The notes: generated from the sequence alone by a model not told the origin. A stretch of DNA of 64,000 bases from Clostridia bacterium (GCA_045590195.1 JAZNQN010000044.1:19186-83185), one strand, 5' to 3'. Counted from the stretch's first letter, positions 22,327 to 63,962 are shown. Numbers and translations: made by a program.

Positions 22327-22336
22327 AATAAAAAAT

Positions 22337-42844: not shown

Positions 42845-42858
42845 TTGCTTTCTCCTTT

Positions 42859-43245: not shown

Positions 43246-44032
43246 TTGCACAGCCCTCCTTTACGCCAAGCGCCTGTGCTAAAAGCTCGGTAAAATATTT
43301 AATTTCTATACCGTCGGCGTGTTTTTCAAGATTATATTTGCAAAGTGGGCAAGCTGTTACTATCATATCTGCACCCATTTTTTTGGCACTTTCCAAAATA
43401 GCAATACTCTTCTTCTTTGCACTTTCACTATCTTCAAGAGCTATATATCCGCCGCAGCATTCGTTTCTGTATGGCGAAACTATTGCTTCCGCACCCATAG
43501 CTTTTACAAGATTTTCAAGAATCTGCGGATTTTCGCTGTCGTCCATCTGCATAACTTTACCAGGACGAAGCAAAAGACAACCATAATATGGAGCAATTTT
43601 TTTACCCTCAAGAGGATTTGTAACTTTTTTGGCAATTTCTTCAAAGCCAATTTCATCTCTCAAAAGCTCAAGATAATGAATAACCTCTGCATCTCCCTCA
43701 TAAGGCGTATCAAGATTCATATAGTTATTTGCTTTAAAAGCAAAATCGCTATCGTTATTAAACTGATAATTTGTTTGTTTTATTACATTATGGCAGGCAG
43801 CACAAACTGTTACAAGCTTCTGACCTTTTTCTTTTGCCTCTACAAGGGCACGAATTGAGGAAAGCTTTGTTGCAATTTCATCCTTCGAAGTTGTAAAAAC
43901 TCCGCCGCAGCACTGCCAGTTATTTATTTCTTCCAGATTAACCCCTAATGCCGCCGCACTTTCTCTTGCGTATTTATCAAGTTCTTTTGCTTTGGTTTTA
44001 AGAGTACAACCGGGATAATATGAAAAATTCAT
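43238..44032 (-). CDS. hdrB: HdrB-like subunit with two CCG domains
   Basis: YYPGC...NWQCCGG...CAACHN and YYGC...ECCGGY...CPLCKYN. The start is at ATG 44032 (MNFSYYPGC) after AGGGAG. Confidence 0.85.
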   Translation of the reverse strand: MNFSYYPGCTLKTKAKELDKYARESAAALGVNLEEINNWQCCGGVFTTSKDEIATKLSSIRALVEAKEKGQKLVTVCAACHNVIKQTNYQFNNDSDFAFKANNYMNLDTPYEGDAEVIHYLELLRDEIGFEEIAKKVTNPLEGKKIAPYYGCLLLRPGKVMQMDDSENPQILENLVKAMGAEAIVSPYRNECCGGYIALEDSESAKKKSIAILESAKKMGADMIVTACPLCKYNLEKHADGIEIKYFTELLAQALGVKEGCANE

Positions 44033-44054
44033 ACCTAAACTCCCTTCTGCAAAA

Positions 44055-45431
44055 TTATACCATCTGTTCAGGATGGAACACTTCGTCAAATTTTTCTTCG
44101 GTTAAAAAGCCAAGCTCGATACAAGCCTCTTTAAGAGAAATATTGTCTTTATAAGCTTTTTTAGCTGTTTTAGCCGCATTTTCATAACCGATATAAGGGT
44201 TAAGCGCAGTAACAAGCATAAGTGAATTATGAAGATTATGATGCATTTTTTCGCGGTTTGCCTTAATGCCTACTGCACAGTTTTTGTTAAATGAAACAAT
44301 GGCTTCTGCCATAAGACGTGCCGACTGCAAAAAGTTATATATGCATACAGGCATAAATACATTAAGTTCAAAGTTACCCTGTGAAGCTGCCATAGAAACA
44401 GCAACATCATTACCCATTACCTGAACGGCAACCATTGTTACCGCTTCACACTGAGTTGGGTTAACTTTACCCGGCATAATTGATGAGCCCGGTTCATTTT
44501 CAGGGATGAAAATTTCTCCAAGGCCATCACGAGGACCGCTTGCAAGCCAACGGATATCGTTTGCTATTTTCATCATATCGCAGGCAAGGGCTTTAATTGC
44601 ACCATGTGCAAAAACAAGCTCGTCTTTTGAAGTTAATGCGTGAAATTTATTCTCAGCAGTTACAAATGGTTTTCCTGTTATTTTCGAAACCTCTGCCGCA
44701 ACGCCTTCTGAAAAACCTTTTGGAGCATTAAGTCCTGTTCCAACTGCAGTTCCGCCAAGTGCAAGTTCACAAAGCGGCTTTACGCTTTGCTTCAAAAGCT
44801 CTACATCTTTCTGGAGGCTTGATCTCCAGCCGCTGATTTCCTGGCTGAATTTTATTGGAGTTGCATCCTGAAGATGTGTTCTTCCGCTTTTTACTATATC
44901 TTCGTTTTCTTTTTCAAGGCGTGAAAAAGTATCGATAAGAGTTTGGACAGCAGGAATAAGTTTATCTTCTATCATCAAAACTGCGGAAATATGCATAGCT
45001 GTAGGGAAAGTATCGTTTGACGACTGGCTCATATTAACATCATCATTAGGATGAAGAATACTTTTGCCCGCAATCTGATTTCCACGGTTTGCAATTACTT
45101 CGTTTGCATTCATATTCGACTGAGTGCCGGAGCCCGTTTGCCATACAACAAGAGGAAAATGGCTATTAAGCTTGCCGCTTATAACCTCATCGCAAGCACT
45201 GGAAATTGCCGAAAGTTTTTCTTCAGTCATTTTTTCGGGTTTCAAAGCGTGATTTGCGATTGCTGCAGCTTTTTTCAAAATGCCGAATGCATGTGTAATT
45301 TCACGTGGCATTGTTTCAATATTTACACCGATTTCAAAATTTTCGTGACTTCTCTGGGTTTGAGCCGCCCACAACCTGTCGGCAGGAACTTTAACCTCTC
45401 CCATCGAGTCGTGTTCAATACGATAATCCAT
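44055..45431 (-). CDS. fumC: Class II fumarate hydratase
   Basis: [15 protein letters not shown] signature. N-terminal [21 protein letters not shown] is FumC-like rather than AspA-like. Confidence 0.85.
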
Positions 45432-45449
45432 AACTACTCCTCTTTTCTT

Positions 45450-46406
45450 TTATATATCCATTTGTTTTATAAGTGATTTCAAAGTATCTGCGCTATGGTG
45501 AAGTGCGCGAACCTCTTCATCATTAAGAGGCAAAAGCATTTTTCCACAAGCGCCCTTGTTGTCAACAACATTGAGAAGGCTCAAAGAAACATCATCTATT
45601 CCATATTCGCCGTGAAGCATTGTTGAAACAGTCATAGTAGTATTTATACCGCCGAGAATACATTTACAAATGTGGCAAACAGATACTGAAACAGCGTAGA
45701 ATGTTGCACCTTTTCTTTCAATAACTCTTCCGCCTGATTTGCGAACATAATCCTCAACTTCATCAAAGTCTATACTTGGCAGCTTAAAGCCTTTCTGAGA
45801 AAAATCGCCTACTACCGAAGACTGACCTTCCTGAATAGGAATGTTAGATACATTTGCAATTGACCACGGAACAAAAGAAGAATCACCATGTTCACCAAGA
45901 ACATAGGCGTGAACATTTTTCTGGTTGATTGAGTAATACTCCGAAAGCCTTGCACGAAGGCGGGCGGTATCAAGAATAGTTCCCGAACCTATAATCTGAT
46001 TTTCAGGAAGCCCTGAACATTTAAAGAATGTGTAAGTTAAAATGTCAACAGGATTGCTCACTATAAGGTAAACTGCATTTGGTGCATAGCGAACAATTTC
46101 AGGAATAATCTGTTTAGTAATATTAACATTTGTCTGAGCAAGGTCAAGCCTTGACTGACCTGGCTTTCTTGCAATACCTGAAGTTACTATTACTATATTT
46201 GAGCCTACTGCATCCTGATATGAACCTGCGTAAACTGTTGCTGATGAGCAAAACGGTGTTCCCTGGCGAATGTCAAGTGCTTCGCCAAGTGCTTTTTCCT
46301 GATTAATATCAATAAGCACAATTTCAGATGCCAGCCCCATAACAGTTAAAGTATACGCAATTGTTGAGCCAACACTACCTGTTCCTATTATTGTAATTTT
46401 GTTCAT
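45450..46406 (-). CDS. mdh: LDH-like malate dehydrogenase
   Basis: NKITIIGTGSVGST Rossmann motif and catalytic LGEHGDS. The substrate loop GIARKPGQSRLDL has Arg at the LDH Gln102-equivalent position. Confidence 0.7.
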   Translation of the reverse strand: MNKITIIGTGSVGSTIAYTLTVMGLASEIVLIDINQEKALGEALDIRQGTPFCSSATVYAGSYQDAVGSNIVIVTSGIARKPGQSRLDLAQTNVNITKQIIPEIVRYAPNAVYLIVSNPVDILTYTFFKCSGLPENQIIGSGTILDTARLRARLSEYYSINQKNVHAYVLGEHGDSSFVPWSIANVSNIPIQEGQSSVVGDFSQKGFKLPSIDFDEVEDYVRKSGGRVIERKGATFYAVSVSVCHICKCILGGINTTMTVSTMLHGEYGIDDVSLSLLNVVDNKGACGKMLLPLNDEEVRALHHSADTLKSLIKQMDI

Positions 46407-46447: not shown

Positions 46448-46487
46448 ATTGTAGCACACATTTAAATTAAAATCAATAGAAATTGAT
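46448..46487 (-). promoter_or_regulatory. Candidate operon promoter with overlapping 6-4-6 palindrome
   Basis: On the minus strand, TTGATT (46476-46471), a 17-nt spacer and TACAAT (46453-46448). The palindrome ATCAAT-AGAA-ATTGAT at 46472-46487 covers the -35. Confidence 0.45.
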
Positions 46488-46504
46488 AATTTTTTAACAA
46501 TCTT

Positions 46505-46546: not shown

Positions 46547-47980
46547 TTATATTATACTGTTTGCATCACTCACGGCGTTATATATAGTTTTGTCTGCGGC
46601 CTTTTTTCCGAAGTTATCTATCATATTTTTATCGCGCGATGTGTGAGTAAGGCACCCTGCCCCACCAATACAACCACCAACACAAGCCATACCTTCTATA
46701 AAGTTTGCATCGAGCATCCCTTTGCTTTTCTTCAGAAGGTTTATTTTACACTCTTCAATTCCGTCGCACGAAATTGCATTAAGTGTAAAGTCGGTTACTC
46801 CTTTTTCTTTAAGCCCCTGTGCAACTGCATCGGCAAGGCCACCACAACGGGCAAAAATTCTTCCGAAATACGATGCGCCGTCAAGTTCGCTTTCTTCAAG
46901 AGAAGTAATATCTATATCGCGGCTGTCAAAAAGCGCCTGAAGCTCTTCAAAAGTTAAAACAGTATCAACATATTTTGAAACTTCTGCTTTCTGTGCCTCA
47001 GCTTTTTTTGCAGTACATGGACCGATAAAAATAACTTTTGCACTTTCATCGTGTTCTTTAATGTATTTTGCAATAGTTGCCATTGGCGAAAGATTATGTG
47101 AAATATTTTCAGAAAGGTTATCAAAATTTTGCTCAATATATTTTACAAACGCAGGGCAACAAGAGCTTGTTAAAAATCTTTTTTCTGCAAGCTCCTCTGC
47201 TTCGGATGCTGCAACCATATCAGCGCCAAGTGCAGCCTCAACAACATTGAAAAATCCGAGTTCTTTAATACCTGTCACAACCTGACCAAGCCTTGCATAG
47301 TTAAACTGACTTGAAATTGTAGGTGCAACAACGGCATAAATATTATACTTTGTATTATTTTCGCTACCTTTTAAAAGGTCGATTGCATCGAGAATAAATG
47401 ATTTATCTGTAATTGCGCCAAATGGGCACTGATATACACAGGCTCCACACGCAATACATTTATCATCAAGAATTTTTGCCGACATATCTACATTCGTTTC
47501 AATTGCATCCACCTTGCAAGCGCTTTGGCACGGACGACGGTAGTTTGCAATTGCGTTGAACGGACAAACTTTTGCGCAGGCACCACAGTTTTTACACTTG
47601 GTTTTATCAATGTGCGCTTTTGGGTTTTCATCAAAAGTTATGGCACCAAATTTGCAAACATCTTCACATCTGTGTGCCAGGCATCCGCGGCATGAATGAG
47701 TTACCTCGTATCCGCCCATAGGACATTCATCGCAGGCAATACTGATAACTTCAATTACATTTTTATTCCTTTTGTTACCACCCATCGCCATTTTAACTCT
47801 TTTTGCAAGAATGGCTCTTTCTTTATAAACGCAGCAACGCATAGTTGCCTCTTTCCCGGGCACAAGTATTTCCGGGATGTCGGATATATTTTCCATAAGA
47901 GTACCTGCCCAGTACAGACGGGCAACTTCTCTTAATACTTTATATTTCAGGTGTTGAACTTTAGTATCAAACTTTCTCAT
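46547..47980 (-). CDS. [FeFe]-hydrogenase-family protein with N-terminal poly-ferredoxin region (HfsD-like)
   Basis: H-cluster motifs LTSSCCPAF, GPCTAKKAE and EGMACVGGCIGGAGC. Upstream FeS motifs CKNCGACAKVCP and CIACGACVYQCP. Start ATG 47980 (after AAGGTGA) is preferred over GTG 47989. Confidence 0.75.
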   Translation of the reverse strand: MRKFDTKVQHLKYKVLREVARLYWAGTLMENISDIPEILVPGKEATMRCCVYKERAILAKRVKMAMGGNKRNKNVIEVISIACDECPMGGYEVTHSCRGCLAHRCEDVCKFGAITFDENPKAHIDKTKCKNCGACAKVCPFNAIANYRRPCQSACKVDAIETNVDMSAKILDDKCIACGACVYQCPFGAITDKSFILDAIDLLKGSENNTKYNIYAVVAPTISSQFNYARLGQVVTGIKELGFFNVVEAALGADMVAASEAEELAEKRFLTSSCCPAFVKYIEQNFDNLSENISHNLSPMATIAKYIKEHDESAKVIFIGPCTAKKAEAQKAEVSKYVDTVLTFEELQALFDSRDIDITSLEESELDGASYFGRIFARCGGLADAVAQGLKEKGVTDFTLNAISCDGIEECKINLLKKSKGMLDANFIEGMACVGGCIGGAGCLTHTSRDKNMIDNFGKKAADKTIYNAVSDANSII

Positions 47981-47990
47981 AATATTCACC

Positions 47991-49163
47991 TTAAAAATAA
48001 CTTACTTTAATTCTTTTACCCATTTTTTCAAGATGTTTGGATAACTCTTCTACCATATTCATTTTGATATTAAAATTTATGGGCAAATCAGGATTTTGAT
48101 GAGCAGGATTTACAGCTCTTCCAACATAAAAGTTAATATCGGTTGCTTCTTCAAACAAAAGTTGAGAAATTAACGACGCAGCATCTTTACCCATTTCCCA
48201 GTCATTATAAAGGCGGTTTTCATTAACAAAGTCCTCGGCATATTTAAGCACATGGCTCATTGTAATTACACCTTCAGTTACCAGGTCAACGCCATCAATT
48301 ATCGCTACTGGCGGAATTCCTTGTTTTTCAAACTTCAAAGTTGGTTTTACTTCCTTGCCAAGGTATTCGGCTGCAATTGAAGATGTTGTACCGCCGCAAA
48401 CAATGTGTTTACCCTCTTTTGCAAAGAAAAGTGCCATCATTTTTCTGCAATCATCTCTGTTTGATGGTGGACCAAAAACAAGGTTTATAGGCGCTCTTTT
48501 TCTTATTCTTACAACGCAGGCACTGGTATCATCGCCCGGTTCTCCGCCATAAAGTTTATTACATTCATCAGTTAAAATGGTTGCCAGGGTTTTTGCGTTA
48601 TATCCGGCACATTCAATAGTTTCCATAAACTCAGTTATCTGCTCAGTTTTCCAACCGAAATTATAAATATTTCCAATTCCTGCATGAGGACAACCATCGC
48701 TCATTGCAAGAAATAAATCGTTTTCGCAAAGCTTTATTCTCGAACGAAGCATCTTTTTATCGCCAATTGAAAATGTTTCCTGGTTATATTCAAAGTTCTT
48801 TCCGTCGCGAAGCAAAATTACAGGCGGATTATCATATTGAATAATTTCTGCAAACTCATTATTAACAATATGAATAATTGTAAATGTTGAATATGCCACT
48901 CCCCTTTGCGAACAAACGGGAAGTGTTGCTGCAATAGTTGAAACGCAGTCTTCAATTGACAGCCCTGCTGCCAGAAGAGTTGAAATTATTTTAGAAGTAA
49001 GTGTTGACAAAATGCCAGCTTTAACACCACTTCCAAGCCCATCGGCAAGAACAATTACAGATGAATTTTCGCCTGAGCTTACAACATCTATATGATCGCC
49101 GCAAAGCTCCTCACCGTGGTGGTTTAATGAGCGATATCCAATATCAGCACACAAATCATTCAT
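47991..49163 (-). CDS. SpoIIE/PP2C-type serine phosphatase with ~170-aa C-terminal domain (HfsC-like)
   Basis: GEELCGDHIDVV, VLADGLGSGVKAGILS and LAMSDGCPHAG. 8-nt ATGAATGA overlap with hydS. Confidence 0.75.
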   Translation of the reverse strand: MNDLCADIGYRSLNHHGEELCGDHIDVVSSGENSSVIVLADGLGSGVKAGILSTLTSKIISTLLAAGLSIEDCVSTIAATLPVCSQRGVAYSTFTIIHIVNNEFAEIIQYDNPPVILLRDGKNFEYNQETFSIGDKKMLRSRIKLCENDLFLAMSDGCPHAGIGNIYNFGWKTEQITEFMETIECAGYNAKTLATILTDECNKLYGGEPGDDTSACVVRIRKRAPINLVFGPPSNRDDCRKMMALFFAKEGKHIVCGGTTSSIAAEYLGKEVKPTLKFEKQGIPPVAIIDGVDLVTEGVITMSHVLKYAEDFVNENRLYNDWEMGKDAASLISQLLFEEATDINFYVGRAVNPAHQNPDLPINFNIKMNMVEELSKHLEKMGKRIKVSYF

Positions 49164-50838
49164 CAGCTATTGTCTCCTTAAGTTTTGTAAGCGCAATTTT
49201 TGTTTCAGCAGCTGTTTCGCCAAGTAACGATGCAATTTCCTGAACAATGCGCATTTGCTTTTCAACAACTTTATCTGCTACTTCGATGGTTTCTGTCCCA
49301 ATTCTCTCTTTACGCTCTTTCTCTCTTTCCTCGGCAGTTACATCACGCAAAATGCAAATTATAATTCTATACTCTTTATCCGGAATAATTGTTTTTTCAA
49401 CATATTTGTCGTATTCTGCAAGATATTTTCTTCTGTTAGAAATCCTTCTTCCGCTTTCCATTGCATTTATAAACGGAGTAGGGTCTAAAATTCTTACAAC
49501 AGGCTCACCCATTACATCGGAAACAGATTTTACGTTCAAAATTTTTCTTGCGGAGTTGTTGATAAGCTGAACTTCAAGTTGTTCGTTTACAACAATAATT
49601 CCGTTAGGTGTGTTGTTAACTATTGTATCTGAGAAAACTTCAGCTTTATCTTTTAAAAACGGCAAACACATTGAAAGGTCGGCCTTTCCGTGGTATATTG
49701 CAATTGCTTTTTCACGGCAGGTATCATATCCACAGGAGCCACAGTTAAGCTCGTCTTCAGGACGAACTTTTCCCATTGTTTTCAGTACTTTGACTATTTC
49801 TTCATCGGCAGGTGGCTGAAGTCGTCTTTCAATAGGCTCAATGCCTTTTTGAAGTTCAGTAAAATCAGGCTGTGAAATTTCAAAGTCTTTTTCGCCTGCA
49901 TAATCAGAAACAGCTTTAAATTCACTCACAGGAGCTGAATTGAATTTTTCCATTATCGGACCGCAAATACAGCTTCCGCTGCAGGCCGACATTTCAATAA
50001 AGCATCCGTGTACTTTTCCGCTTTCAATATCACGAAGCGCTTCAATACAGTTATTAGTGCCATCAATGGCCATATATGTATATTCAGGAAGTCGCTCGTC
50101 CATTGTTTTTAATATACCTCCCGTTGTCGGGAAAAGCCTTGCACGGCTTTTTTCGGTAACATCTAGCTCTTTTTCAATCTCTATATTTTCTTCTTTGAAC
50201 CAGTTTGTAAGTTCATCGAAGGTTAAAACTGCGTCTACAATATCTCCGTAGTAATCACCCTCATCTTTTTTGGAAAGGCAGGGGCCGATAAATACTGTTT
50301 TCGCACCTGGATATTTCTTTTTAATTTCTATGGAATGAGCCTGCATAGGCGACATTGTGTTTGAAAGGTAAGGCAAAACAGAAGGAAAATACTTCTGAAC
50401 AAGCAAATTAACACTGTGGCAACAGGAAGAAATAAGAATATCAGGCTTTTCTTCACGAAGTTTGCGCTGGTATTCGTTTTTTACAATTGTTGCACCAATA
50501 GCAGTTTCTTCAGCATCGAAAAAGCCAAGTTTTAATAAAGCCTTTTTCATTGCCTCTATTCCGACACCATCATAATTTGCAATAAAAGACGGAGCAAGAG
50601 AAGCAACAACCTGTTCACCATTTGCAATCATTACTCTTACTTTTTCGCGCTGGTCTGTAATTTCTTTAGCATTTTGCGGACAAACAACAAAGCATTGACC
50701 GCATAAAATACACTCATTGCCAATAATATGTGCCTGATTACCTGAGAAACGAATGGCTTTTACGGGACAATGTCTAATACATTTATAACAGTTTTTACAG
50801 TTTGATTTTTTAAGTTTAAGCCATTCCACTATGCTCAC
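49156..50838 (-). CDS. hydS: Putative sensory [FeFe]-hydrogenase (HydS/HfsB-like): 2x[4Fe-4S], variant H-domain, extra Cys4 motif, PAS domain
   Basis: CKNCYKCIRHCP and CILCGQCFVVCP. Variant H-cluster motifs ISSCCHSV, GPCLSKKDE and EMSACSGSCICGP. CGSCGYDTC...C. PAS-like SDTIVNNTPNGIIVVNEQLEVQLINNSARKIL. Confidence 0.75.
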   Translation of the reverse strand: MSIVEWLKLKKSNCKNCYKCIRHCPVKAIRFSGNQAHIIGNECILCGQCFVVCPQNAKEITDQREKVRVMIANGEQVVASLAPSFIANYDGVGIEAMKKALLKLGFFDAEETAIGATIVKNEYQRKLREEKPDILISSCCHSVNLLVQKYFPSVLPYLSNTMSPMQAHSIEIKKKYPGAKTVFIGPCLSKKDEGDYYGDIVDAVLTFDELTNWFKEENIEIEKELDVTEKSRARLFPTTGGILKTMDERLPEYTYMAIDGTNNCIEALRDIESGKVHGCFIEMSACSGSCICGPIMEKFNSAPVSEFKAVSDYAGEKDFEISQPDFTELQKGIEPIERRLQPPADEEIVKVLKTMGKVRPEDELNCGSCGYDTCREKAIAIYHGKADLSMCLPFLKDKAEVFSDTIVNNTPNGIIVVNEQLEVQLINNSARKILNVKSVSDVMGEPVVRILDPTPFINAMESGRRISNRRKYLAEYDKYVEKTIIPDKEYRIIICILRDVTAEEREKERKERIGTETIEVADKVVEKQMRIVQEIASLLGETAAETKIALTKLKETIADE

Positions 50839-51411: not shown

Positions 51412-53109
51412 TTATTCCTCCGATTTTTTCGCATAGTTCACATGTAAAAGTTTATGAACTTTACCTTTAATAATATTGTTATAAAGTGACGAAACAATTG
51501 GGTTTTCTTCTGAACGACGTATGCTTAAGAGTCTGTCAGATTTATAAAGTCCGCTCTTTCTGGCAGCAATCTCGTGCTGCATTGCAAATGGCTGACCGCC
51601 ACCATTTATACATCCGCCAGGGCAAGCCATAACTTCAATAAAGTCAATCTGTTCGCCGTCTTTTACGCGCTGAAGAACTTTTTCAGCATTTGCAAGACCG
51701 CTTACAACTACAATATGAAGTTCTCTTTCTCCATACATAAGTTTAAATTCTTTAATGCCATCAAGGCCACGCTGACCGCAATCTGCAATAGAAAGAAGTC
51801 CGCTTCTTGATTTATTTGCAGCAACACGGCGAAGTACAGCTTCTGTAACACCACCTGTTACACCAAATATTACACCTGCACCTGAAATAGTACCAAATGG
51901 CATATCGACAGCTTCAGGCTCTAAGGTATCAAACATAATACCTGCTTCTTTAACCATTGAAACAAGTTCCTGAGTTGTAATAACTGCATCAACATTAGGC
52001 TGACCGTCCATTTTGAACTCATCTCTTGCAGCTTCAAACTTTTTAGCTGTACAAGGCATTACTGCAACATGGAACATTTTTCTTGAAGCTTCTTTTGCCT
52101 GGTCTTTCAAAATTGAAGCCATCATCTGCATTGGGCTGCGGCAAGTTGATACATTAGGAAGAAATTCAGGGAATTTCTTTTCGCAGAACTGAATCCAGCC
52201 AGGGCAGCATGAAGTAATAAGTGGAAGATTTTCGCCTTTTTCAAGTTTAGTAAGAAATTCTTCACTTTCTTCCAAAACAGTTAAATCTGCTCCGAGAGAA
52301 GTATCATAAATTTCATCAAATCCCATACGATGAAGAGCGGCAACAATTTTACCCATTACATCTTCCCCGTCGCGAACACCAAGTTCTTTACCAAGTGCAA
52401 CTCTTACCGCAGGAGCAACCTGAACAGTTGTTTTAACTTCAGGGTCGCTTATTGCTTTCCAAACGGGAGCAATATTATTTTTAACAACAAGAGCACCTGT
52501 TGGACATACTGCAACACACTGACCACAGCCAACACATGGGCTTTCTGAAAGTGGTTTATTAAACGCAGTGCTGATTGTCATATTAGAGCCACGGTATGCA
52601 AAGTCGATAGCGCCAACATTCTGAACCTCGTTACACATTCTCACACAGTCGCCGCAAAGAATACATTTGCCTGTATCTCTTGTAATGCATACGGAAGACG
52701 TATCTTCATCTTTTGTTGAAACTGCAGTATTAGGGAAACGAACGCCTTCAATATTAAAGCGCATTGCCAAATCCTGCAATTTACATTTTGCGTTGTTCTC
52801 ACAGGTTGTACAGTCGCGGCAATGGTTAGCAAGAAGAAGTTCGAGAATATTTTTTCTGTATCTTCTAAGGCGCTCTGTATTTGTTTTTATGTTCATACCT
52901 GCACGAGGAGGTGTTGAACAAGCGGCATCAAGTCCGCCTCTTTCGTTTTCTACCATACACATACGGCATGCACCGTAAACCGAAAGCTCGGAATGATAGC
53001 AGAATGTAGGCATTTTTACGCCTGTTTTATTTATAAGTTCAAGAAGATTTTTCTCTCCGTTAATTTCAACGGGGATACCGTCGATTGTCAAATACTGTTT
53101 CTCAGTCAT
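51412..53109 (-). CDS. hydA: [FeFe]-hydrogenase catalytic subunit HydA (bifurcating-type, set 1)
   Basis: N-terminal 2Fe-2S (FCYHSELSVYGACRMCMVE). FeS motifs CILCGDCVRMC and CVGCGQCVAVCP. Canonical H-cluster motifs TSCCPGW, MPCTAKKFEA and EVMACPGGCINGGGQP. Confidence 0.9.
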   Translation of the reverse strand: MTEKQYLTIDGIPVEINGEKNLLELINKTGVKMPTFCYHSELSVYGACRMCMVENERGGLDAACSTPPRAGMNIKTNTERLRRYRKNILELLLANHCRDCTTCENNAKCKLQDLAMRFNIEGVRFPNTAVSTKDEDTSSVCITRDTGKCILCGDCVRMCNEVQNVGAIDFAYRGSNMTISTAFNKPLSESPCVGCGQCVAVCPTGALVVKNNIAPVWKAISDPEVKTTVQVAPAVRVALGKELGVRDGEDVMGKIVAALHRMGFDEIYDTSLGADLTVLEESEEFLTKLEKGENLPLITSCCPGWIQFCEKKFPEFLPNVSTCRSPMQMMASILKDQAKEASRKMFHVAVMPCTAKKFEAARDEFKMDGQPNVDAVITTQELVSMVKEAGIMFDTLEPEAVDMPFGTISGAGVIFGVTGGVTEAVLRRVAANKSRSGLLSIADCGQRGLDGIKEFKLMYGERELHIVVVSGLANAEKVLQRVKDGEQIDFIEVMACPGGCINGGGQPFAMQHEIAARKSGLYKSDRLLSIRRSEENPIVSSLYNNIIKGKVHKLLHVNYAKKSEE

Positions 53110-54988: not shown

Positions 54989-55466
54989 TGTTTATCTCCT
55001 CTCTGAGTTTTTTCAAAAGCTCTGATGCTTTATCCGGTGTCATTGCAGAATATACAACATCGTTTACTGTAAGTACCGGAGCAAGACCACAAGCGCCGAG
55101 ACATGATACTGTTTCAAGTGTAAAGTTTAAGTCGTCGGTAGTTTTTTTGCTTTCGCTAAGTCCAAGTTCACTGCGAAGACGCTCCAAAATCGGAATGGAA
55201 CGGCGAACATGACAAGCTGTTCCGTCGCATATTTTTATTACATATTTTCCCTTTGGTTCAAGAGAAAAGTTTTCGTAAAATGTTGCTACGCTGAAAATCC
55301 TAACTTCAGGAATGTTAAGCTGTTTTGCAAGATGTGGAAAAATATCTTTTGGCAAGTAATGATATTCTTCCTGAATTTCCTGCAAAATTGCGATAATTGC
55401 CTGTGGATTTTTGTCGTATTTATCGACTATTTTATCTACGATTGCAAAATCAAACTGTTCACTCAT
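54981..55466 (-). CDS. hydC: HydC, NuoE-like 2Fe-2S subunit (set 1)
   Basis: CDGTACHVRR...CLGACGLAP. 8-nt overlap with hydB. Confidence 0.9.
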   Translation of the reverse strand: MSEQFDFAIVDKIVDKYDKNPQAIIAILQEIQEEYHYLPKDIFPHLAKQLNIPEVRIFSVATFYENFSLEPKGKYVIKICDGTACHVRRSIPILERLRSELGLSESKKTTDDLNFTLETVSCLGACGLAPVLTVNDVVYSAMTPDKASELLKKLREEINNA

Positions 55467-55488
55467 AGTTTTACTCCTTTGTTTTTAA

Positions 55489-56898
55489 TTATTTATTCTT
55501 AAGGTATTCATCGATTGCCTTGGCAGCAGTTTTACCTGCGCCCATAGCAGATATAACCGTTGCAGCACCTGTTACTGCATCGCCGCCTGCATAAACTGCA
55601 TCGCGTGATGTAAGGCCATCTTCATTTACAATAATTCCGCCTCTGTTATTAACTTCAAGGCCCTTTGTAGTATCTTTTATAAGCGGGTTAGGCGAAGTAC
55701 CAATAGACATTACAACTGCATCAACCTCTAACTCATATTCTGAACCCGGAATTTCTACAGGACGTCTTCTTCCTTTTTCATCAGGTTCGCCAAGTTCCAT
55801 TTTCATAAGGCGAATACCTGTTACAAAACCGTTTTTAGGATCTCTTGGATCCTCAGGATTGTTATAACCCAGAATTTCAACCGGGTTTCTGAGAAGCTGA
55901 AAATCGATTCCCTCTTCTTCAGCATGTTCAACTTCTTCCCTTCTTGCAGGAAGTTCTTCCATTGAACGACGGTAAATAATATAAACCTTCTCAGCTCCAA
56001 GTCTTAAAGCAGTTCTTGCAGCATCCATAGCAACATTACCGCCGCCTACAACTGCAACACGGCCACCTTTCATAATAGGTGTGCTGCCATCTTCACGATA
56101 AGCTTTCATGAGATTGCTTCTTGTTAAGAATTCGTTTGCAGAATAAACGCCTTTAAGAGATTCGCCGGGAATTCCCATGAAATTTGGAAGGCCTGCACCG
56201 CTGCCTACAAAAACAGCTTCATAGCCCATATCAAAAAGCTCGTCGATTGTAAGGGTTTTACCGATTACAACATTAGGCTCAACATTTACGCCAAGTTCTT
56301 TTAAAGTTTCAACTTCTTTAGCAACTATTGCCTTTGGAAGACGAAATTCAGGAATACCATAAACAAGTACACCGCCTGCTGTGTGAAGTGCTTCATAAAC
56401 TGTTACGTCGTAACCTTTTTTAGCAAGGTCACCTGCACAGGTAAGGCCTGAAGGGCCGCTACCAACAACGGCAACTTTGTGGCCGTTAGACAATGGTTTT
56501 TCAGCCTTTTCCTTGGCGTTTTCATTATGCCAGTCAGCAACAAAACGCTCAAGTCGGCCAATGCCTACAGGCTCAAACTTAATTCCAAGAGTACATTTAC
56601 TCTCACACTGTGTTTCCTGTGGGCAAACTCTTCCGCAAACCGCAGGAAGTGAAGATGATTTTGAAATAGACTGATATGCACCTTCAAAATCGCCATTTTT
56701 AATATGAGTAATAAAATCAGGAATATCAATATTTACAGGACAGCCTGCAACGCAAGGCTGGTTTTTACAATTTAAGCATCTTTCAGCTTCTCCTACAGCC
56801 ATTTCCTGAGTATAACCAAGAGCAACTTCATTGAAGTTATGGCCCCTCACATCAGCAGGCTGTGTTGGCATTTCATGCTTTTTAGGATTTATTGCCAT
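55489..56898 (-). CDS. nfnB: NfnB / GltD-like (SudA-like) NADPH-dependent FAD/FeS oxidoreductase subunit
   Basis: CLNCKNQPCVAGCPVNIDIP, VAVVGSGPSGLTCAG and VAVVGGGNVAMDAAR. Confidence 0.8.
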   Translation of the reverse strand: MAINPKKHEMPTQPADVRGHNFNEVALGYTQEMAVGEAERCLNCKNQPCVAGCPVNIDIPDFITHIKNGDFEGAYQSISKSSSLPAVCGRVCPQETQCESKCTLGIKFEPVGIGRLERFVADWHNENAKEKAEKPLSNGHKVAVVGSGPSGLTCAGDLAKKGYDVTVYEALHTAGGVLVYGIPEFRLPKAIVAKEVETLKELGVNVEPNVVIGKTLTIDELFDMGYEAVFVGSGAGLPNFMGIPGESLKGVYSANEFLTRSNLMKAYREDGSTPIMKGGRVAVVGGGNVAMDAARTALRLGAEKVYIIYRRSMEELPARREEVEHAEEEGIDFQLLRNPVEILGYNNPEDPRDPKNGFVTGIRLMKMELGEPDEKGRRRPVEIPGSEYELEVDAVVMSIGTSPNPLIKDTTKGLEVNNRGGIIVNEDGLTSRDAVYAGGDAVTGAATVISAMGAGKTAAKAIDEYLKNK

Positions 56899-56923
56899 TT
56901 TAAATTCCTCCTTCTAAATCAGT

Positions 56924-57772
56924 TCAGGCATTTTTGAAAAGATTGCAAGCTTCTTCATATGCGTGACGCTCAAAATCTGCATACATTCTGCCTCTTGACA
57001 TTGCCTCGTCAAAATCGATTTCGTAGGCATTAAATTCAGGCCCGTCAACACATGCAAACTTTGTAACCTTTTTGCCATCCTGGTTCAAAGTAAGTCGGCA
57101 ACCGCCGCACATACCAGTTCCGTCGATCATAATAGGATTCATTGAAGCTGTTACAGGAACACCAAAAGGTTTGGCAGTTAGAGTAACAAACTTCATCATA
57201 ATAAGCGGACCAATTGTGATGATAATGTCAAATTTTTCTCCGCCTTCAAGCATTTCTTTAAGCGGAACAGTTACGTTACCGTGACGACCATAAGAACCGT
57301 CATCAGTCATTAAAATAAGGTTGTCCGAGCATTCTCTGAACTCATCTTCCAAAATTACAAGATTTTTATCTCTGAAACCGATAATGCTTGTAACTTCAGC
57401 CCCAAGGCGATGAAATTCCTGCGCAACAGGCATAGCAATAGCACAGCCAACGCCTCCGCCTACGATACAAACTTTTTTAATACCTTCAGTATGAGTTGCT
57501 CTTCCAAGAGGACCAACAAAATCTTCAATGAACTCACCTTCGTTTTTCTGACCGAGTTTTGCAGTTGTTCCTCCAACTATTTGAAAAATTATTTTAACTG
57601 TGCCATCTTCCTTGTTGCAACCTGCAACTGTAAGCGGTATTCTTTCGCCTTCGCTGTCGACACGTAAAATAATAAACTGACCTGGTTTTGCCTTTGCTGC
57701 AACTAACGGAGCTTCAATTTCCATCTGGGTTACAGTTGGGTTTAACACTCTTTTACGCACAATTTTGTACAT
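56924..57772 (-). CDS. nfnA: NfnA / SudB / PyrK-like FAD 2Fe-2S subunit
   Basis: PGQFIILRV, IVGGGVGCAIAMP and C-terminal GTGMCGGCRL...FACVDGPEF. Confidence 0.8.
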   Translation of the reverse strand: MYKIVRKRVLNPTVTQMEIEAPLVAAKAKPGQFIILRVDSEGERIPLTVAGCNKEDGTVKIIFQIVGGTTAKLGQKNEGEFIEDFVGPLGRATHTEGIKKVCIVGGGVGCAIAMPVAQEFHRLGAEVTSIIGFRDKNLVILEDEFRECSDNLILMTDDGSYGRHGNVTVPLKEMLEGGEKFDIIITIGPLIMMKFVTLTAKPFGVPVTASMNPIMIDGTGMCGGCRLTLNQDGKKVTKFACVDGPEFNAYEIDFDEAMSRGRMYADFERHAYEEACNLFKNA

Positions 57773-57927
57773 AAAAATTCACCTCTCTATATTTTAAATA
57801 ATTGTTATATTACATACATAACTTTACATAATATATAATAACACAATTACACTTTTTTGCATATTATAAAATTTGCATATCCGTTATATACTTATAGGCA
57901 TATGGTTATTTCGTTTTTACATAACAA

Positions 57928-57958
57928 CAGCGCGATACATTTATTATGTACCGCGCTG
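57928..57958 (-). terminator. Terminator after hydA (set 2)
   Basis: CAGCGCG-x-TACAT TTATT ATGTA-x-CGCGCTG, followed on the minus strand by a U-rich tract. Confidence 0.6.
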
Positions 57959-57974
57959 CTTAAAATTATTTAAA

Positions 57975-59711
57975 TCAGTATTTCTTTCTTTCTACATAGT
58001 GAGTATGTAAAAGGTCGTGAGCTTTGTGTGAACCGGGTTCGCCAAAGTACTCTTTATAGAGTTTGTCAACATCAGGATTCTTATGACTCTGTCTTACAGT
58101 AGATGCTTTGTCTTCAGCATAAAGGGCTTTTGCCCTTTCAGCCTTAACATCCATATCCATACGAAGCTTAGCCGGAACAATCGGCTGACCGCCACCTGTT
58201 ACGCAACCACCGGGACAAGCCATAATTTCGATAAAGTGATAATCTGCTTTGCCCTCTTTAATACTGTCGAGAAGTGCACGTGCATTTCCAAGGCCATGAG
58301 CAATAGCAACTTTAACTTCTTTACCCCCGAGAGTAAGAGCAGCTTCTTTAATGCCCTCAACACCTCTTACTGCCTCAAAATCAAGGCTTGCAGGCTCTTT
58401 ACCGTCAAGAATTTCGGCAACTGTACGAAGTGCTGCTTCCATAACACCACCTGTTGCACCAAAGATAACACCTGCGCCTGTATCCATACCAAATGGGTCA
58501 TCGAATTTTGCATCTTCAAGAGAAGCAAAATCTATACCCTGTTCTTTAATCATTTTAGCAAGTTCTCTTGTTGTAAGAACGATATCAACATCTTGAAATT
58601 CGTTGCCAAGTTCTTCTCTGCCAGCTTCGAACTTTTTAGCTACGCAAGGCATAACGGAAACTACAACCATTTTTTCAGGGTCGATATTATTCTTTTCTGC
58701 ATAGTAAGATTTAAGAACAGCACCAAACATTTCGTGAGGAGATTTACAGCTTGAAAGGTTTGGAATAAATTCAGGATAGTAATGTTCACAGAACTTAACC
58801 CAACCAGGGCTGCAAGAAGTTATAAGTGGCAACTTACCACCATCTTTAATTCTGTTTATAAGCTCTGTTCCTTCTTCCATAATTGTAAGGTCGGCAGCTG
58901 TATTTGTATCAAAAACTTTGTCAAATCCGAGCATCTTGAGTGCATTTGCCATTTTACCTGTAACAGGTGTGCCAATTTCAAATCCGAATTCTTCGCCAAG
59001 TGCCGCTCTTACAGCAGGAGCTGTCTGAACGATAACATATTTTTCAGGATCGGCAATTGCTTCCCAAGTCTGTGCAATACTGTCTTTTTCATAAAGTGCA
59101 CCAACAGGACAAGCAGCAATACACTGACCACAGTTAACACAGGCAACATCGCCAAGTGATTGTTCAAACGCACAAGCAATTGAAGTGTTGAAACCACGGT
59201 TAACAGCGTCAATAACAGATACAGTTTGAATATTTTTACAAGCACTTACACAGCGACGGCAGAGAATACATTTGTTGTTATCACGAACAATTGATGCTGA
59301 TGAATCATCAATTTCCTGGACATTTCTCTCGCCTTCAAAAGCAATATCACGAACACCGAGTTCTTCAGCCAAAGTCTGAAGTTCACAATTTCTGTTTCTT
59401 TCGCAAGTAAGACATCTTTTGTCATGAGCGGAAAGAATAAGCTCAAGTGTGATTTTTCTTGCTTTTCTGACTTTTTCGCTGTTTGTTACAACCTCAAGGC
59501 CTTCTGAAACAGGATAAACACAAGCCGCCTGAAGTGTTCTTGCAGTTGAAACTTCAACTACGCACATACGGCATGAACCTGTTTTGCTTACATCCTTTAA
59601 ATAACAAAGAGTAGGGATGTGAATATTTGCACTGCGTGCAGCTTCAAGAACGGTATAATTTGCAGGAACGCTAAGGCTCTTGCCGTTAATTTTAATATTT
59701 ACATTTTCCAT
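57975..59711 (-). CDS. hydA: [FeFe]-hydrogenase catalytic subunit HydA (set 2) with atypical TSCSPGW L1 motif
   Basis: The domain order matches set 1. MPCVAKKFEA and EIMACPGGCVTGGGQP are canonical, but L1 reads LITSCSPGW (codons TGC AGC CCT, with Ser at 58809-58811). Confidence 0.85.
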   Translation of the reverse strand: MENVNIKINGKSLSVPANYTVLEAARSANIHIPTLCYLKDVSKTGSCRMCVVEVSTARTLQAACVYPVSEGLEVVTNSEKVRKARKITLELILSAHDKRCLTCERNRNCELQTLAEELGVRDIAFEGERNVQEIDDSSASIVRDNNKCILCRRCVSACKNIQTVSVIDAVNRGFNTSIACAFEQSLGDVACVNCGQCIAACPVGALYEKDSIAQTWEAIADPEKYVIVQTAPAVRAALGEEFGFEIGTPVTGKMANALKMLGFDKVFDTNTAADLTIMEEGTELINRIKDGGKLPLITSCSPGWVKFCEHYYPEFIPNLSSCKSPHEMFGAVLKSYYAEKNNIDPEKMVVVSVMPCVAKKFEAGREELGNEFQDVDIVLTTRELAKMIKEQGIDFASLEDAKFDDPFGMDTGAGVIFGATGGVMEAALRTVAEILDGKEPASLDFEAVRGVEGIKEAALTLGGKEVKVAIAHGLGNARALLDSIKEGKADYHFIEIMACPGGCVTGGGQPIVPAKLRMDMDVKAERAKALYAEDKASTVRQSHKNPDVDKLYKEYFGEPGSHKAHDLLHTHYVERKKY

Positions 59712-59730
59712 AATTATCTGCTCCCCTCTC

Positions 59731-61605
59731 TTAGTGTTTTTCTATTGCGCCAAATTTACAGCTATCCATACACACGCCACATTTGATACATTTGTCTGTA
59801 TCAATTGTAAATGGCGATTTGATTTCGCCTGAAATTGCGCCAACAGGACATTTTCTTGCACAGAGTGAACACCCTTTACATTTATCTGCAACAATCTCGT
59901 ATTTAAGAAGTTTTTTACATACGCCTGCAGGACATTTTTTATCACGAACGTGAGCAATGTATTCATCCCTGAAATAACGAAGTGTGCTGAGTACAGGGTT
60001 AGGAGCTGTCTGGCCAAGGCCACAAAGTGAAGAAGTTTTAATAGCTTCACAAAGCTCTTCAAGCTTATCAATATCTTCCATTGTTCCCTTACCTTCTGTA
60101 ATTTTTGTAAGAATTTCAAGAAGGCGTTTTGTACCGATACGGCATGGCGAACATTTACCACAGCTCTCATCAACTGTAAATTCAAGGAAGAATTTAGCAA
60201 TATCAACCATACAGTTATCTTCATCCATTACAATAAGACCACCGCTGCCCATCATAGAGCCAATGCTCATAAGCGAATCGTAATCAATAGCTGTATCAAT
60301 CAAAGATGCAGGAATACATCCTCCCGAAGGGCCACCTGTCTGAGCGGCTTTAAATTTCTTACCGTTTGGAATTCCGCCGCCAATTTCTTCGATGATTTCA
60401 CGAAGAGTTGTTCCCATAGGAACTTCAACAAGACCTGTGTTATTGATTTTACCACCAAGAGCAAATACTTTTGTACCTGCGCTCTTTTCGGTACCAATAC
60501 CTTTAAACCAAGCGGCACCATTATTTATAATCATAGGAATATTTGCATAAGTTTCAACATTATTCAGAAGAGTTGGTTTCTGCCACAAACCTTTAACAGC
60601 CGGGAACGGAGGACGTGGACGTGGTTCGCCACGGTGACCTTCAATAGAAGTCATAAGAGCTGTTTCCTCGCCGCAAACAAATGCACCGGCACCAAGACGA
60701 AGCTCAAGGTTAAATTCGAAATCAGTTCCAAAAATATTTTTACCAAGAATTCCATATTCCCTTGCCTGTTCAATAGCAATATTAAGGCGGTCAACCGCGA
60801 TAGGATATTCGGCACGAATATAGATATAACCCTGCTTAGCGCCTACTGCATAAGCTGCAATTGACATAGCCTCTATAATAGTGTGAGGATCACCCTCAAG
60901 AACACTACGGTCCATAAACGCACCAGGGTCGCCTTCATCGGCATTACATGCAACATATTTTTCTTCGCCGGGAGCATTTGCAGTAAACAACCATTTCATA
61001 CCTGTTGAGAAGCCGGCACCGCCACGGCCACGAAGACTTGAGTTTTTAACTTCATCAATTACTTCAGCAGGTGTCATACTTGTAAGAACTTTTTCAAGGG
61101 CTTTATAACCATCGAAAGCTATGTATTCATCAATATTTTCAGGATTAACAACACCACAGTTACGAAGAGCAAGACGCTGTTGTTTTCTGTAGAAATTAAC
61201 ATCGTTAAGACCTTTGATATTTTCACCATCAATTGTTTCCTGATAAACAAGGCGTTTTACAACGTTTCCACCCTTAAGGTGTTCACTGACAATTTCCTTA
61301 ACATCTTCAATTTTTACGCAGCTGTAAAAACATCCTTCAGGATATACTATCATAATCGGGCCAAGTGCACAAAGGCCAAAGCAACCGGTCTGAACAACCT
61401 GAATTTCGTCTGCAATACCAAAATCTGCAAGCTGTTTTTTAAGTTCTGTAATAATTTTGGGCGAACCCGATGAAGTACAACCTGTACCGCCACATACGAG
61501 CACATGGTGGCGAATTTTATCGGGAACCACATTTTTATCTTTACGAAGTGAAATTCTTTTAAAAGTTTCACTACGTATAGCATTTATTTCATTTAAGCTT
61601 TTCAT
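59731..61605 (-). CDS. hydB: HydB, NuoF-like subunit (set 2)
   Basis: GRGGAGFSTGMKW, CNADEGDPGAFMDR and ESCGKCSPCRIG. ATG 61605 lies 7 nt after GGAGG. Confidence 0.9.
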   Translation of the reverse strand: MKSLNEINAIRSETFKRISLRKDKNVVPDKIRHHVLVCGGTGCTSSGSPKIITELKKQLADFGIADEIQVVQTGCFGLCALGPIMIVYPEGCFYSCVKIEDVKEIVSEHLKGGNVVKRLVYQETIDGENIKGLNDVNFYRKQQRLALRNCGVVNPENIDEYIAFDGYKALEKVLTSMTPAEVIDEVKNSSLRGRGGAGFSTGMKWLFTANAPGEEKYVACNADEGDPGAFMDRSVLEGDPHTIIEAMSIAAYAVGAKQGYIYIRAEYPIAVDRLNIAIEQAREYGILGKNIFGTDFEFNLELRLGAGAFVCGEETALMTSIEGHRGEPRPRPPFPAVKGLWQKPTLLNNVETYANIPMIINNGAAWFKGIGTEKSAGTKVFALGGKINNTGLVEVPMGTTLREIIEEIGGGIPNGKKFKAAQTGGPSGGCIPASLIDTAIDYDSLMSIGSMMGSGGLIVMDEDNCMVDIAKFFLEFTVDESCGKCSPCRIGTKRLLEILTKITEGKGTMEDIDKLEELCEAIKTSSLCGLGQTAPNPVLSTLRYFRDEYIAHVRDKKCPAGVCKKLLKYEIVADKCKGCSLCARKCPVGAISGEIKSPFTIDTDKCIKCGVCMDSCKFGAIEKH

Positions 61606-61632
61606 AATCAAACCTCCAAGTTCAAATCTGGT

Positions 61633-62121
61633 TTATTCCATATACTTTTTCAAGATGCCTTCAACTTCGTCAACGGTAAGTTTTCCGTAAACGTCTTCGC
61701 CAACTGTCATAACAGGAGCAAGACCGCAGGCACCGATACATCTTGTAGCATCGATAGAGAAAAGACCGTCGGGAGTACATTCTCCAACTTCTATTCCCAA
61801 AATTTCCTTAACCTTCTCCAGAATAAGATTTGAACCTTTTACATAACATGCAGTACCAAGACAAACACCTATCTGATATTTGCCCTTTGGATTAAGTGAA
61901 AACTGAGCATAAAAAGTTACAACTCCATAAATTTCAGCCAAAGGAATATTAAGTCCTTCTGCAATCATTGTCTGCACTTCGATTGGCAGATATCCATAAA
62001 TTTTCTGCGCTTCGTGCAAAACAGGAATAACTGCGCCGGGCTGATCTTTGTGCATTTCAATAACTTCGTTAAGCTTTGCAGCCTGTTCACTTGTTCCTGC
62101 AAATGGTATTGTTTGTGCCAT
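61633..62121 (-). CDS. hydC: HydC, NuoE-like subunit (set 2)
   Basis: CLGTACYVKG...CIGACGLAP. Confidence 0.9.
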   Translation of the reverse strand: MAQTIPFAGTSEQAAKLNEVIEMHKDQPGAVIPVLHEAQKIYGYLPIEVQTMIAEGLNIPLAEIYGVVTFYAQFSLNPKGKYQIGVCLGTACYVKGSNLILEKVKEILGIEVGECTPDGLFSIDATRCIGACGLAPVMTVGEDVYGKLTVDEVEGILKKYME

Positions 62122-62399
62122 TAAAAACTCCTCCTATGTTTTATATTAATGCATAATAACACATCATTGTTAATATTATATCAATTATATCACTTTTACA
62201 CAAGTACCTAAATTATTTTTGGTTACATTGTACAAAACTTACCGCGTATTTTCCGTTTTTACCTATGCTTTTTTTGCATAATGACTATATAAAAAATGTT
62301 GGATAACAAAATTACACAAATATAGCTAAAAAAACTTTGACTTTTTTCCTATAATATGTTATCATTATTTAATAATGCATTTTACGAGGAGTGAATCAA

Positions 62400-63962
62400 G
62401 TGGCAGAAAACATTAAAAGTACCACAGAAGAACAGGTACAGGATTTAAACGAAATTTTACAGGTAAGAAGAGATAAGCTTGCCGAACTTCAGCAAAGCGG
62501 CAACGATCCTTTTCAGATAACAAAATTTGACCGTACACATTCTTCAAAAGATATTTGCGAAGGATACACAACCGAAGAACGCACAGTAACTGTTCGCGGA
62601 GAGGAAACACAGGTAACTGCTAAAATCTCCCCTCTCGACGGGAAAATTGTTACTGTTGCCGGCAGAATTATGTCAAAACGTGGTATGGGTAAAGTTGGCT
62701 TTGCTCACATTGCTGATATTGACGGTCAGCTTCAGCTTTTTGTTAAAAAAGATATTCTTGGCGAAGATGACTATAATACATTTAAAAAATATGATATTGG
62801 CGACATTGTTGGCGCTGAAGGCGAAGTTTTCACAACACAGACAGGCGAAATTTCAGTTCGTGTAAATAAACTTACACTTCTTTCAAAATCACTTCAGCCT
62901 CTCCCTGAGAAGTTCCATGGTATGACAAATACCGACCTTCGTTACAGACAGCGCTATGTCGACCTTATTATGAACGCCGATGTTAAAGATACATTTATCA
63001 AGCGTTCAAAGATTATCAGCGCAATCCGCACATATCTTGCAAAAGAAAACTTTCTCGAAGTTGAAACACCAATGCTTGTTTCAAACGCAGGCGGCGCTGC
63101 TGCCCGTCCTTTCGAAACACATTTTAATGCTCTTGATGAAGATTTCAAACTTCGTATTTCTCTTGAACTTTACTTAAAACGTCTTATCGTTGGTGGTCTT
63201 GAAAGAGTATATGAAATTGGAAGAGTTTTCAGAAACGAAGGCCTTGACACCCGTCATAATCCTGAGTTTACTCTTATGGAGCTTTATCAGGCATATACAG
63301 ATTACCACGGTATGATGGATTTAACTGAAAACCTCTACCGCTATGTTGCAAACGAAGTTTTAGGCACAACTAAAATTGTTTATAACGGTATTGAAATGGA
63401 TTTAGGCAAGCCTTTTGAAAGAATTACAATGCTTGATGCAGTTAAAAAGTATTCCGGTGTTGACTTTAATGAAATTAAAACTACCGAAGAAGCTCACGCA
63501 GTTGCAAAAGAACACAATATCGAATTTGAGAAACATCATAAAAAAGGCGATATCTTAAACCTTTTCTTTGAAGAATATGTTGAACATCACTTAATTCAGC
63601 CTACATTTGTTATGGATCATCCGGTTGAAATTTCTCCTCTTACCAAGAAGAAACCGGAAAATCCTGATTATGTTGAACGTTTTGAATTCTTTATGAACGG
63701 CTGGGAAATGGCAAATGCTTATTCAGAACTTAACGACCCAATTGACCAGAGAGAACGTTTTAAGGCTCAGGAAGAACTTCTTGCTATGGGCGATGAAGAA
63801 GCTAACACAACTGATGAAGACTTTATGCGTGCACTTGAAATTGGTATGCCTCCAACAGGCGGTATCGGATTTGGTATTGACAGAATGTGTATGCTCCTTA
63901 CCGACTCTGCTGCAATCCGCGATGTACTTCTCTTCCCGACAATGAAACCGCTTGATAAGTAA
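62400..63962 (+). CDS. lysS: Lysyl-tRNA synthetase (class II)
   Basis: [17 protein letters not shown] (motif 2), [14 protein letters not shown] (motif 3) and an OB-fold N-domain. GTG 62400 lies 8 nt after GAGGAG; the ORF-track GTG 62391 sits too close to the RBS. Confidence 0.9.

Follow-up and report, generated by a model that had tools for sequence, protein, structure and literature searches.

Can an [FeFe]-hydrogenase exchange one of the cysteines that hold its H-cluster and still be a genuine enzyme? This question is raised by a stretch of 64,000 nucleotides from a Clostridia bacterium (GCA_045590195.1, JAZNQN010000044.1:19186-83185), which was analysed as a whole and is called the window below; positions are counted from its first letter. 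The window contains two sets of genes for three-subunit HydABC hydrogenases, and the catalytic subunit of the second set, HydA2, reads TSCSPGW in its L1 motif. The canonical form is TSCCPxW. A reading of the DNA alone, referred to here as the sequence-only reading, had offered three explanations for this: serine as an unusual cluster ligand, a shift of the remaining cysteine to the cluster with an altered proton relay, or a one-base error. It had also predicted an altered catalytic bias or redox behaviour for any real variant. Our analysis shows a real serine, kept under selection, at the site of Cys300 of the Clostridium pasteurianum enzyme CpI, within an otherwise canonical active site and an Acetobacterium woodii-type HydABC operon. 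We consider it highly probable that hydA2 encodes a bifurcating or confurcating HydA of the A. woodii type in which a cysteine ligand of the H-cluster has been stably replaced by serine.

The serine in the L1 motif of HydA2

The minus strand at 58797..58823 reads ATA ACT TCT TGC AGC CCT GGT TGG GTT and translates to ITSCSPGWV, which confirms that the TSCSPGW motif of the set-2 HydA and its AGC codon at 58809-58811 are real. The LITSCCPGW reported for the set-1 HydA was likewise found, at 52195..52215. The CpI numbering used by the sequence-only reading is correct, as an ungapped alignment puts the first cysteine at C299 and the serine at C300. When the numbering was rebuilt from the alignments, the corresponding pairs were Cys300/Ser301 in A. 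woodii, Cys298/Cys299 in Thermoanaerobacter kivui and Cys299/Cys300 in CpI, with Ser301 of HydA2 aligning without gaps to all of them. The L2 and L3 motifs are canonical in both HydA proteins, as had been stated, but the two strings quoted as common to both (MPCVAKKFEA and EIMACPGGCVTGGGQP) belong to set 2 only; the set-1 protein has MPCTAKKFEA and EVMACPGGCINGGGQP.

HydA2 thus agrees with the consensus MPCxxKxxE in L2 (MPCVAKKFE) and ExMxCxxGCxxGGGQP in L3, and departs from the strict L1 consensus at the second cysteine only. Because HydA1 of A. woodii, a bona fide member of the family, has the same deviation, the TSCCPxW consensus is too narrow and HydA2 is no outsider. Pfam searches assigned to HydA2 an N-terminal 2Fe-2S domain, a NuoG-like domain with a His-ligated 4Fe-4S cluster, a 2x[4Fe-4S] domain, the H-domain (PF02906) and the small-subunit domain (PF02256), i.e. 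the full M3 architecture, and the cysteines of the F-domain are conserved in the alignment. The protein scored 932.7 bits against NCBIfam model NF040763 ("NADH-dependent [FeFe] hydrogenase, group A6"; cut-off 765) and 560.4 bits against the group A model TIGR02512 (cut-off 405.95).

Conservation of the serine in close relatives

Two samples of close relatives were examined. The first consisted of the 120 best database matches (72-100% identity, 90% clusters), and the second of 80 loci from one genome per species (60-73% identity). Metagenome-assembled genomes of gut, rumen and other host-associated Clostridia make up most of these loci, and of the HydA2 clade as sampled; three are from isolates (Clostridium leptum DSM 753, Faecalicatena contorta and Mobilisporobacter senegalensis). 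The closest named relatives of HydA2 are from Ructibacterium gallinarum (73% identity) and C. leptum (63%). TSCSPGW was present in 120/120 homologues, and TSCSP[G/A]W in every one of the 80 loci.

All six serine codons occur at this site in the locus sample (TCA 35, TCT 16, TCC 9, TCG 7, AGC 11, AGT 2), so that 67 loci use the TCN family and 13 the AGY family. A change between these families requires two substitutions and passes through a codon for another residue. On a neighbour-joining (NJ) tree of 81 close sequences, parsimony placed five AGY-TCN switches, and all 81 sequences encode serine. Five such switches with serine in every extant sequence are the mark of long-term selection for this residue in the HydA2 lineage. 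The observed conservation far exceeds what chance could provide.

These data also bear on the one-base error. A single base separates AGC from TGC, and a sequencing or assembly error would therefore be a simple explanation. It is refuted by the occurrence of serine in all 120 homologues and all 80 independent genome loci, in six different codons. The nearest relatives of the window in the NJ tree (loci L001-L003, L005, L008, L009 and L011-L014) share the AGY family, and a protein 100% identical to HydA2 is independently present in the database (P0001). We regard the probability of an error as negligible.

Distribution across HydA diversity

To collect more distant relatives, 1.84 billion cluster representatives were searched exhaustively with HMMER, which yielded 149 diverse sequences with 35-59% identity for alignment. 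The L1 site reads TSCSP in 22 of them, SSCSP in one and TSCS[IA] in two, which brings the Cys-Ser type to about 17%. The all-cysteine form [TS][ST]CCP is found in 104/149, and the remainder are degenerate or partial. On NJ trees of 102 representatives, parsimony gave 10-17 changes between cysteine and serine at the deep level, with both types interleaved. NJ trees at 35-55% identity are poorly resolved and their deep nodes unreliable, and we make no claim on the number of independent origins.

TSCSP is uniform within a clade of at least 60% identity and recurrent or scattered beyond it. The suggestion that the motif might define a clade holds at the closer distance; at the deeper level it is mixed with the cysteine type. 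The sequence-only reading had also considered that TSCSP might turn out to be a common variant in well-characterised active enzymes, and this is what we found: it occurs in A. woodii HydA1 and in roughly 17% of diverse HydA proteins. Our census adds that the serine is strictly conserved in a large clade, is encoded by both codon families and makes up about a sixth of the diverse HydA sample. Filters that insist on TSCCPxW, like those of the 2013 Melainabacteria annotation (PMC3787301) and a further motif screen, would wrongly discard or mark as suspect a large clade of genuine bifurcating enzymes.

Comparison with the A. woodii enzyme and other known hydrogenases

When all PDB sequences were searched, the best match of HydA2 was A. 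woodii HydA1 (7Q4V/7Q4W/8A5E; E = 1e-239). The two proteins share 61.6% identity, compared with 52.4% for T. kivui HydA, 43.5% for CpI and 44.5% for the set-1 HydA of the window, and they were sisters in 56/60 NJ bootstraps. In the HMMER alignment with HydA2, the A. woodii protein reads ITSCSPGWIK. It thus has the same L1 motif, a serine with the identical residue number 301 and the same domain architecture, and A. woodii HydB and HydC are the best PDB matches of HydB2 and HydC2. The window differs from A. woodii in its host, a Clostridia genome with 38% GC and not an acetogen of the genus Acetobacterium, and in the presence of an NfnAB-like gene pair immediately downstream of set 2.

For the A. 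woodii enzyme, the role of the serine has been described. Ser301 replaces the [4Fe-4S]H cysteine ligand that is Cys299 in T. kivui, and it does not noticeably affect the H-cluster's vibrational signature in Fourier-transform infrared spectra taken by attenuated total reflection (ATR-FTIR) (Katsyv et al., JACS 2023, PMC10021017). The enzyme shows the typical H-cluster states including HoxH and Hhyd, is active and bifurcating at 4.1 U/mg, and has been mapped in the reduced state at 3.4 Å (PMC10021017). Neither a redox potential of [4Fe-4S]H nor an S301C revertant was seen in that paper for the A. woodii enzyme. The sequence-only reading's prediction of a changed bias or redox behaviour finds no support in the existing A. 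woodii data.

In a search of literature full text, "TSCSP" matched only the 2013 Melainabacteria paper, and among hits for a serine-ligand hydrogenase only Katsyv et al. was relevant. The putative trimeric confurcating hydrogenases of Melainabacteria ACD20 carry TSCSPGW in L1 (Di Rienzi et al., eLife 2013, PMC3787301). In these proteins an L3 cysteine is also replaced, by isoleucine, whereas HydA2 retains both L3 cysteines. The serine variant, noted in 2013 and published for A. woodii in 2023, is therefore already known; it is neither an error nor new.

The all-cysteine enzymes provide the contrast. T. kivui HydABC (8A6T, 8BEW) and set 1 of the window resemble set 2 in their three-subunit bifurcating architecture, their L2 and L3 motifs and their proton pathway, but they differ in an all-cysteine L1 (TSCCPSW in T. 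kivui, TSCCPGW in set 1), and set 1 is in addition linked to a HydS/PP2C sensory module. CpI (group A1, e.g. 4XDC) shares with HydA2 the M3 fold, and its cluster ligands except C300 and its proton path align without gaps. Unlike HydA2, it has a cysteine at position 300, is monomeric and ferredoxin-dependent, and has no HydB or HydC.

The rest of the active site

The alignment with CpI shows that the proton pathway is kept in HydA2 (C300, E280, E283, R287 and S320, equivalent to CpI C299, E279, E282, R286 and S319). The three other ligands of [4Fe-4S]H (C356, C499 and C503) are conserved, as are the second-sphere residues M354, K359, F417 and M497 (M353, K358, F417 and M497 in the CpI list).

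A compensating cysteine was sought, and no alignment column was enriched in cysteine among the serine-type sequences. Cys308 and Cys322 of HydA2 were considered as substitute ligands and rejected, as neither is specific to the serine group. A search for a co-varying second site in the HydA alignment gave a next-best mutual information of 0.28, compared with 0.68 for the serine site itself, and none of the covariation candidates falls within the H-cluster pocket. Because there is neither an enriched cysteine column nor a strong co-varying site, the alignment argues against a substitute cysteine ligand and against a remodelled pocket.

The exchange has an engineered counterpart. Cys170 of Chlamydomonas reinhardtii HydA1 (CrHydA1) corresponds to CpI C300, and the C170S mutant thus carries the HydA2 substitution at the same ligand position. 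Its [4Fe-4S] occupancy resembles that of the wild type, the [2Fe] subcluster is taken up, if slowly, and the enzyme is active, in contrast to C170A (Kertess et al., Chem Sci 2017, PMC5855289). Cys170 sits in a flexible loop (PMC5855289). Because the engineered C170S enzyme assembles its cluster and is active, this ligand position tolerates serine. Unlike HydA2, C170S is an artificial mutant in a scaffold that evolved with cysteine, and the natural serine enzyme of A. woodii is reported to be spectroscopically typical.

What the serine may do in HydA2

By homology to the A. woodii structure and spectroscopy, Ser301 of HydA2 would occupy the fourth ligand position of [4Fe-4S]H, with Cys356, Cys499 and Cys503 as the other three, and Cys300 would remain the proton relay to the azadithiolate (adt) amine. 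HydA2 would assemble a normal H-cluster and, by way of HydB and HydC, couple H2 with NAD(H) and ferredoxin. Of the three explanations put forward by the sequence-only reading, the unusual serine ligand is therefore the one that homology supports: it is published for A. woodii HydA1, with the same residue number and an ungapped, near-identical local sequence.

Several points weigh against this assignment. The role assigned to HydA2 comes from sequence and homology, the protein is only 61.6% identical to its A. woodii counterpart, and the bifurcating stoichiometry of set 2 is inferred from the subunit architecture. The absence of an effect in A. woodii refers to infrared spectra and activity only, and the 3.4 Å map (PMC10021017) places the serine at the ligand site yet is too coarse to prove that iron and oxygen are bonded. 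The algal C170S mutant, moreover, matures slowly, reaches between a few per cent and some 30% of wild-type activity and tends toward H2 evolution (PMC5855289). Because this mutant is impaired, serine is not neutral in every scaffold, and the natural serine may have a subtle functional effect.

The limited resolution of the A. woodii map also leaves room for the main rival explanation, in which Ser301 is not a true ligand: [4Fe-4S]H would be held by three cysteines with water, hydroxide or nothing as the fourth ligand, and the serine would form a hydrogen bond nearby. Even the C170A mutant of CrHydA1 retains a [4Fe-4S] occupancy of about 60%, and coordination by solvent is raised there as a possibility (PMC5855289). 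However, C170A refuses the [2Fe] subcluster, which is accepted by C170S and C170D (PMC5855289), so that the oxygen-donor side chain matters. The presence of serine in 200/200 close relatives, in both codon families and never replaced by alanine, glycine or threonine, argues for a specific role, and the published A. woodii model treats the serine as a ligand. We thus consider a non-ligating serine unlikely.

A move of Cys300 to the cluster, with the proton relay lost or rerouted, is a formal possibility, since a single cysteine is left in the motif. Around the motif, however, the alignment with A. woodii and CpI has no gaps and few differences, and the relay cysteine and the whole pathway through E280, E283, R287 and S320 are conserved. 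The A. woodii enzyme is reported to be active and its H-cluster adopts the usual states, HoxH and Hhyd among them. The published model gives the ligand position to Ser301 and not to Cys300, whose sulfur it shows within hydrogen-bonding reach of the adt amine. This second proposal of the sequence-only reading has found no support, and we regard it as very improbable.

HydA2 might also be a degenerate paralogue with a non-catalytic or sensory function: its L1 departs from the consensus of many motif filters, and the window already has a second, all-cysteine HydABC and a HydS sensor. Yet L2, L3, the relay cysteine, the proton pathway and the second-sphere residues are all intact, HydA2 passes the NCBIfam hydrogenase cut-off, and its A. 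woodii orthologue has been purified and is active in bifurcation. The Melainabacteria cases also lack an L3 cysteine that HydA2 keeps. Assignment to the sensory HydS type (group C/D) was rejected on account of the intact relay cysteine and pathway and the Pfam result, in which HydA2 has neither a PAS nor any other signalling domain. A degenerate HydA2 is, in our view, extremely unlikely.

A modest enzymological puzzle follows: the serine is strictly kept although it leaves the A. woodii spectra unaffected, and the engineered algal mutant is impaired. Only tentatively, we suggest that the serine may be an adaptive tuning device which acts on the potential of the cluster, on its proton-coupled reduction, on maturation kinetics or on the behaviour towards O2. 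Its retention in all 200 close relatives despite the codon-family switches would fit this idea, as would its seemingly repeated gain or loss across HydA diversity. In that case, the serine would shift the properties of what may be a main type of bifurcating hydrogenase in gut and rumen Clostridia. The serine-type and all-cysteine HydABC sets lie 5 kb apart in the window, and two such complexes in one genome form a natural matched pair, which is a convenient comparison but opens no new question.

The set-2 operon

Genes and motifs are listed in Table 1. The genes hydC2, hydB2 and hydA2 are directly adjacent, with upstream genes on the same strand and gaps of 21 bp (hydC2-hydB2) and 19 bp (hydB2-hydA2). 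The open reading frame (ORF) listed for hydB2 starts with TTG, and an ATG lies two codons downstream. In HydB2, a thioredoxin-like 2Fe-2S domain is N-terminal and a Fer4 dicluster region (Pfam Fer4 x2, Fer4_7) is C-terminal. A GGPSG motif is found at residue 426 of HydB2 and residue 424 of HydB1; every putative bifurcating beta subunit carries this motif in its SLBB region (Losey et al. 2020, PMC7311640). The domain set of HydB, the GGPSG motif, the NuoE-like HydC and the operon structure together indicate that set 2 is probably an electron-bifurcating HydABC. For the A. woodii orthologue, it has been demonstrated that H2-driven reduction of ferredoxin is strictly NAD(P)+-dependent (PMC10021017).

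In the 80 related loci, the order hydC..hydB-hydA is kept wherever the upstream flank is present. In most of them, hydC is separated from the downstream hydB by about 1 kb or more, enough for at least one additional gene, in contrast to the 21 bp in the window. Many of these loci contain a weak HydS-like match (27-29% identity) a few kb upstream. A promoter and terminator scan of 55300..62500 gave nothing above the shuffled expectation.

Table 1. Hydrogenase genes, motifs and neighbouring genes in the window
Feature	Position	Strand	Description
hydA2	57975..59711	-	578 aa; group A [FeFe]-hydrogenase catalytic subunit; reads LPLITSCSPGWV
L1/P1 motif of HydA2, TSCSPGW (canonical TSCCPxW)	58800..58820	-	from the sequence; Cys300 = proton-relay Cys, equivalent of CpI C299
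Ser301 of HydA2, codon AGC	58809..58811	-	aligned with Cys300 of CpI, Cys299 of T. kivui and Ser301 of A. woodii; [4Fe-4S]H ligand site
L2 motif of HydA2, MPCVAKKFE	58626..58652	-	Cys356 = CpI C355 ligand; M354; K359
L3 motif of HydA2, EIMACPGGCVTGGGQP	58182..58229	-	Cys499 = ligand; Cys503 = bridging ligand; M497
hydB2	59731..61611	-	NuoF-like subunit for flavin mononucleotide (FMN) and NAD(H); best PDB match A. woodii HydB 7Q4V_B, E = 5.9e-302
hydC2	61633..62121	-	NuoE-like thioredoxin-like 2Fe-2S subunit; best PDB match A. woodii HydC 7Q4V_C, E = 3.2e-59
NfnAB-like pair	55489..57772	-	469-aa GltD/DPD-type subunit (4Fe-4S + FAD/NAD(P)); 282-aa DHODB-type Fe-S subunit
Set-1 HydA (HydA1)	51412..53109	-	L1 TSCCPGW at 52195..52215; all-Cys paralogue
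Small ORF, 82 aa	51161..51409	-	no Pfam match; between hydA1 and hydS
Small ORF, 86 aa	50835..51095	-	thioredoxin-like 2Fe-2S domain; between hydA1 and hydS
HydS-type sensor	49156..50838	-	560 aa; H-domain with degenerate L1 SSCCHS, putative Fe-S domain, PAS
SpoIIE/PP2C-type phosphatase	47991..49163	-	8-bp overlap with the HydS gene
480-aa [FeFe]-hydrogenase-family gene	46547..47989	-	several ferredoxin-type 4Fe-4S domains + H-domain, no small-subunit domain

Set 1 and the neighbouring genes

Four genes with an H-domain follow one another on the minus strand: the 480-aa hydrogenase, HydS, set 1 and set 2. The best PDB match of the set-1 HydA is the all-cysteine HydA of T. kivui (8A6T), and its score against NF040763 is 681, below the cut-off. 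Directly downstream of the set-1 hydCBA genes, HydS and the PP2C-type phosphatase form what may be a regulatory module that senses H2. The 480-aa hydrogenase has the motifs TSSCCPAF (L1), GPCTAKKAE (L2) and GMACVGGC (L3), from which we read it as a probable group-B-like monomeric type. The NfnAB-like pair lies between the two hydCBA sets, at 22 bp from hydC1 and 202 bp from hydA2; an adjacency of such a pair to hydA is not conserved in the 80 related loci.

Other features of the window

Downstream of the hydrogenase island, a run of redox and central-metabolism genes occupies 40850..46406 on the minus strand. It encodes an HdrA-like FAD/Fe-S protein (664 aa), a CCG-domain protein (283 aa), a lyase of the class-II fumarase/aspartase family (458 aa) and a dehydrogenase of the Ldh/Mdh family (318 aa). 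A Rex-like palindrome at 46483..46500 (plus strand) has the Ldh/Mdh gene on one side and the 480-aa hydrogenase gene on the other. It reads TTGATAATTTTTTAACAA, with one mismatch to TTGTNAANNNNTTNACAA, and was rejected as a Rex operator near the operons, as such matches are at chance level (71/100 shuffles gave at least one). Outside this region, the window contains one tRNA gene at 2082..2155 (minus strand) and a 6S/SsrS RNA at 22133..22328 (plus strand; Rfam RF00013, 55.8 bits against a gathering score of 46.4).

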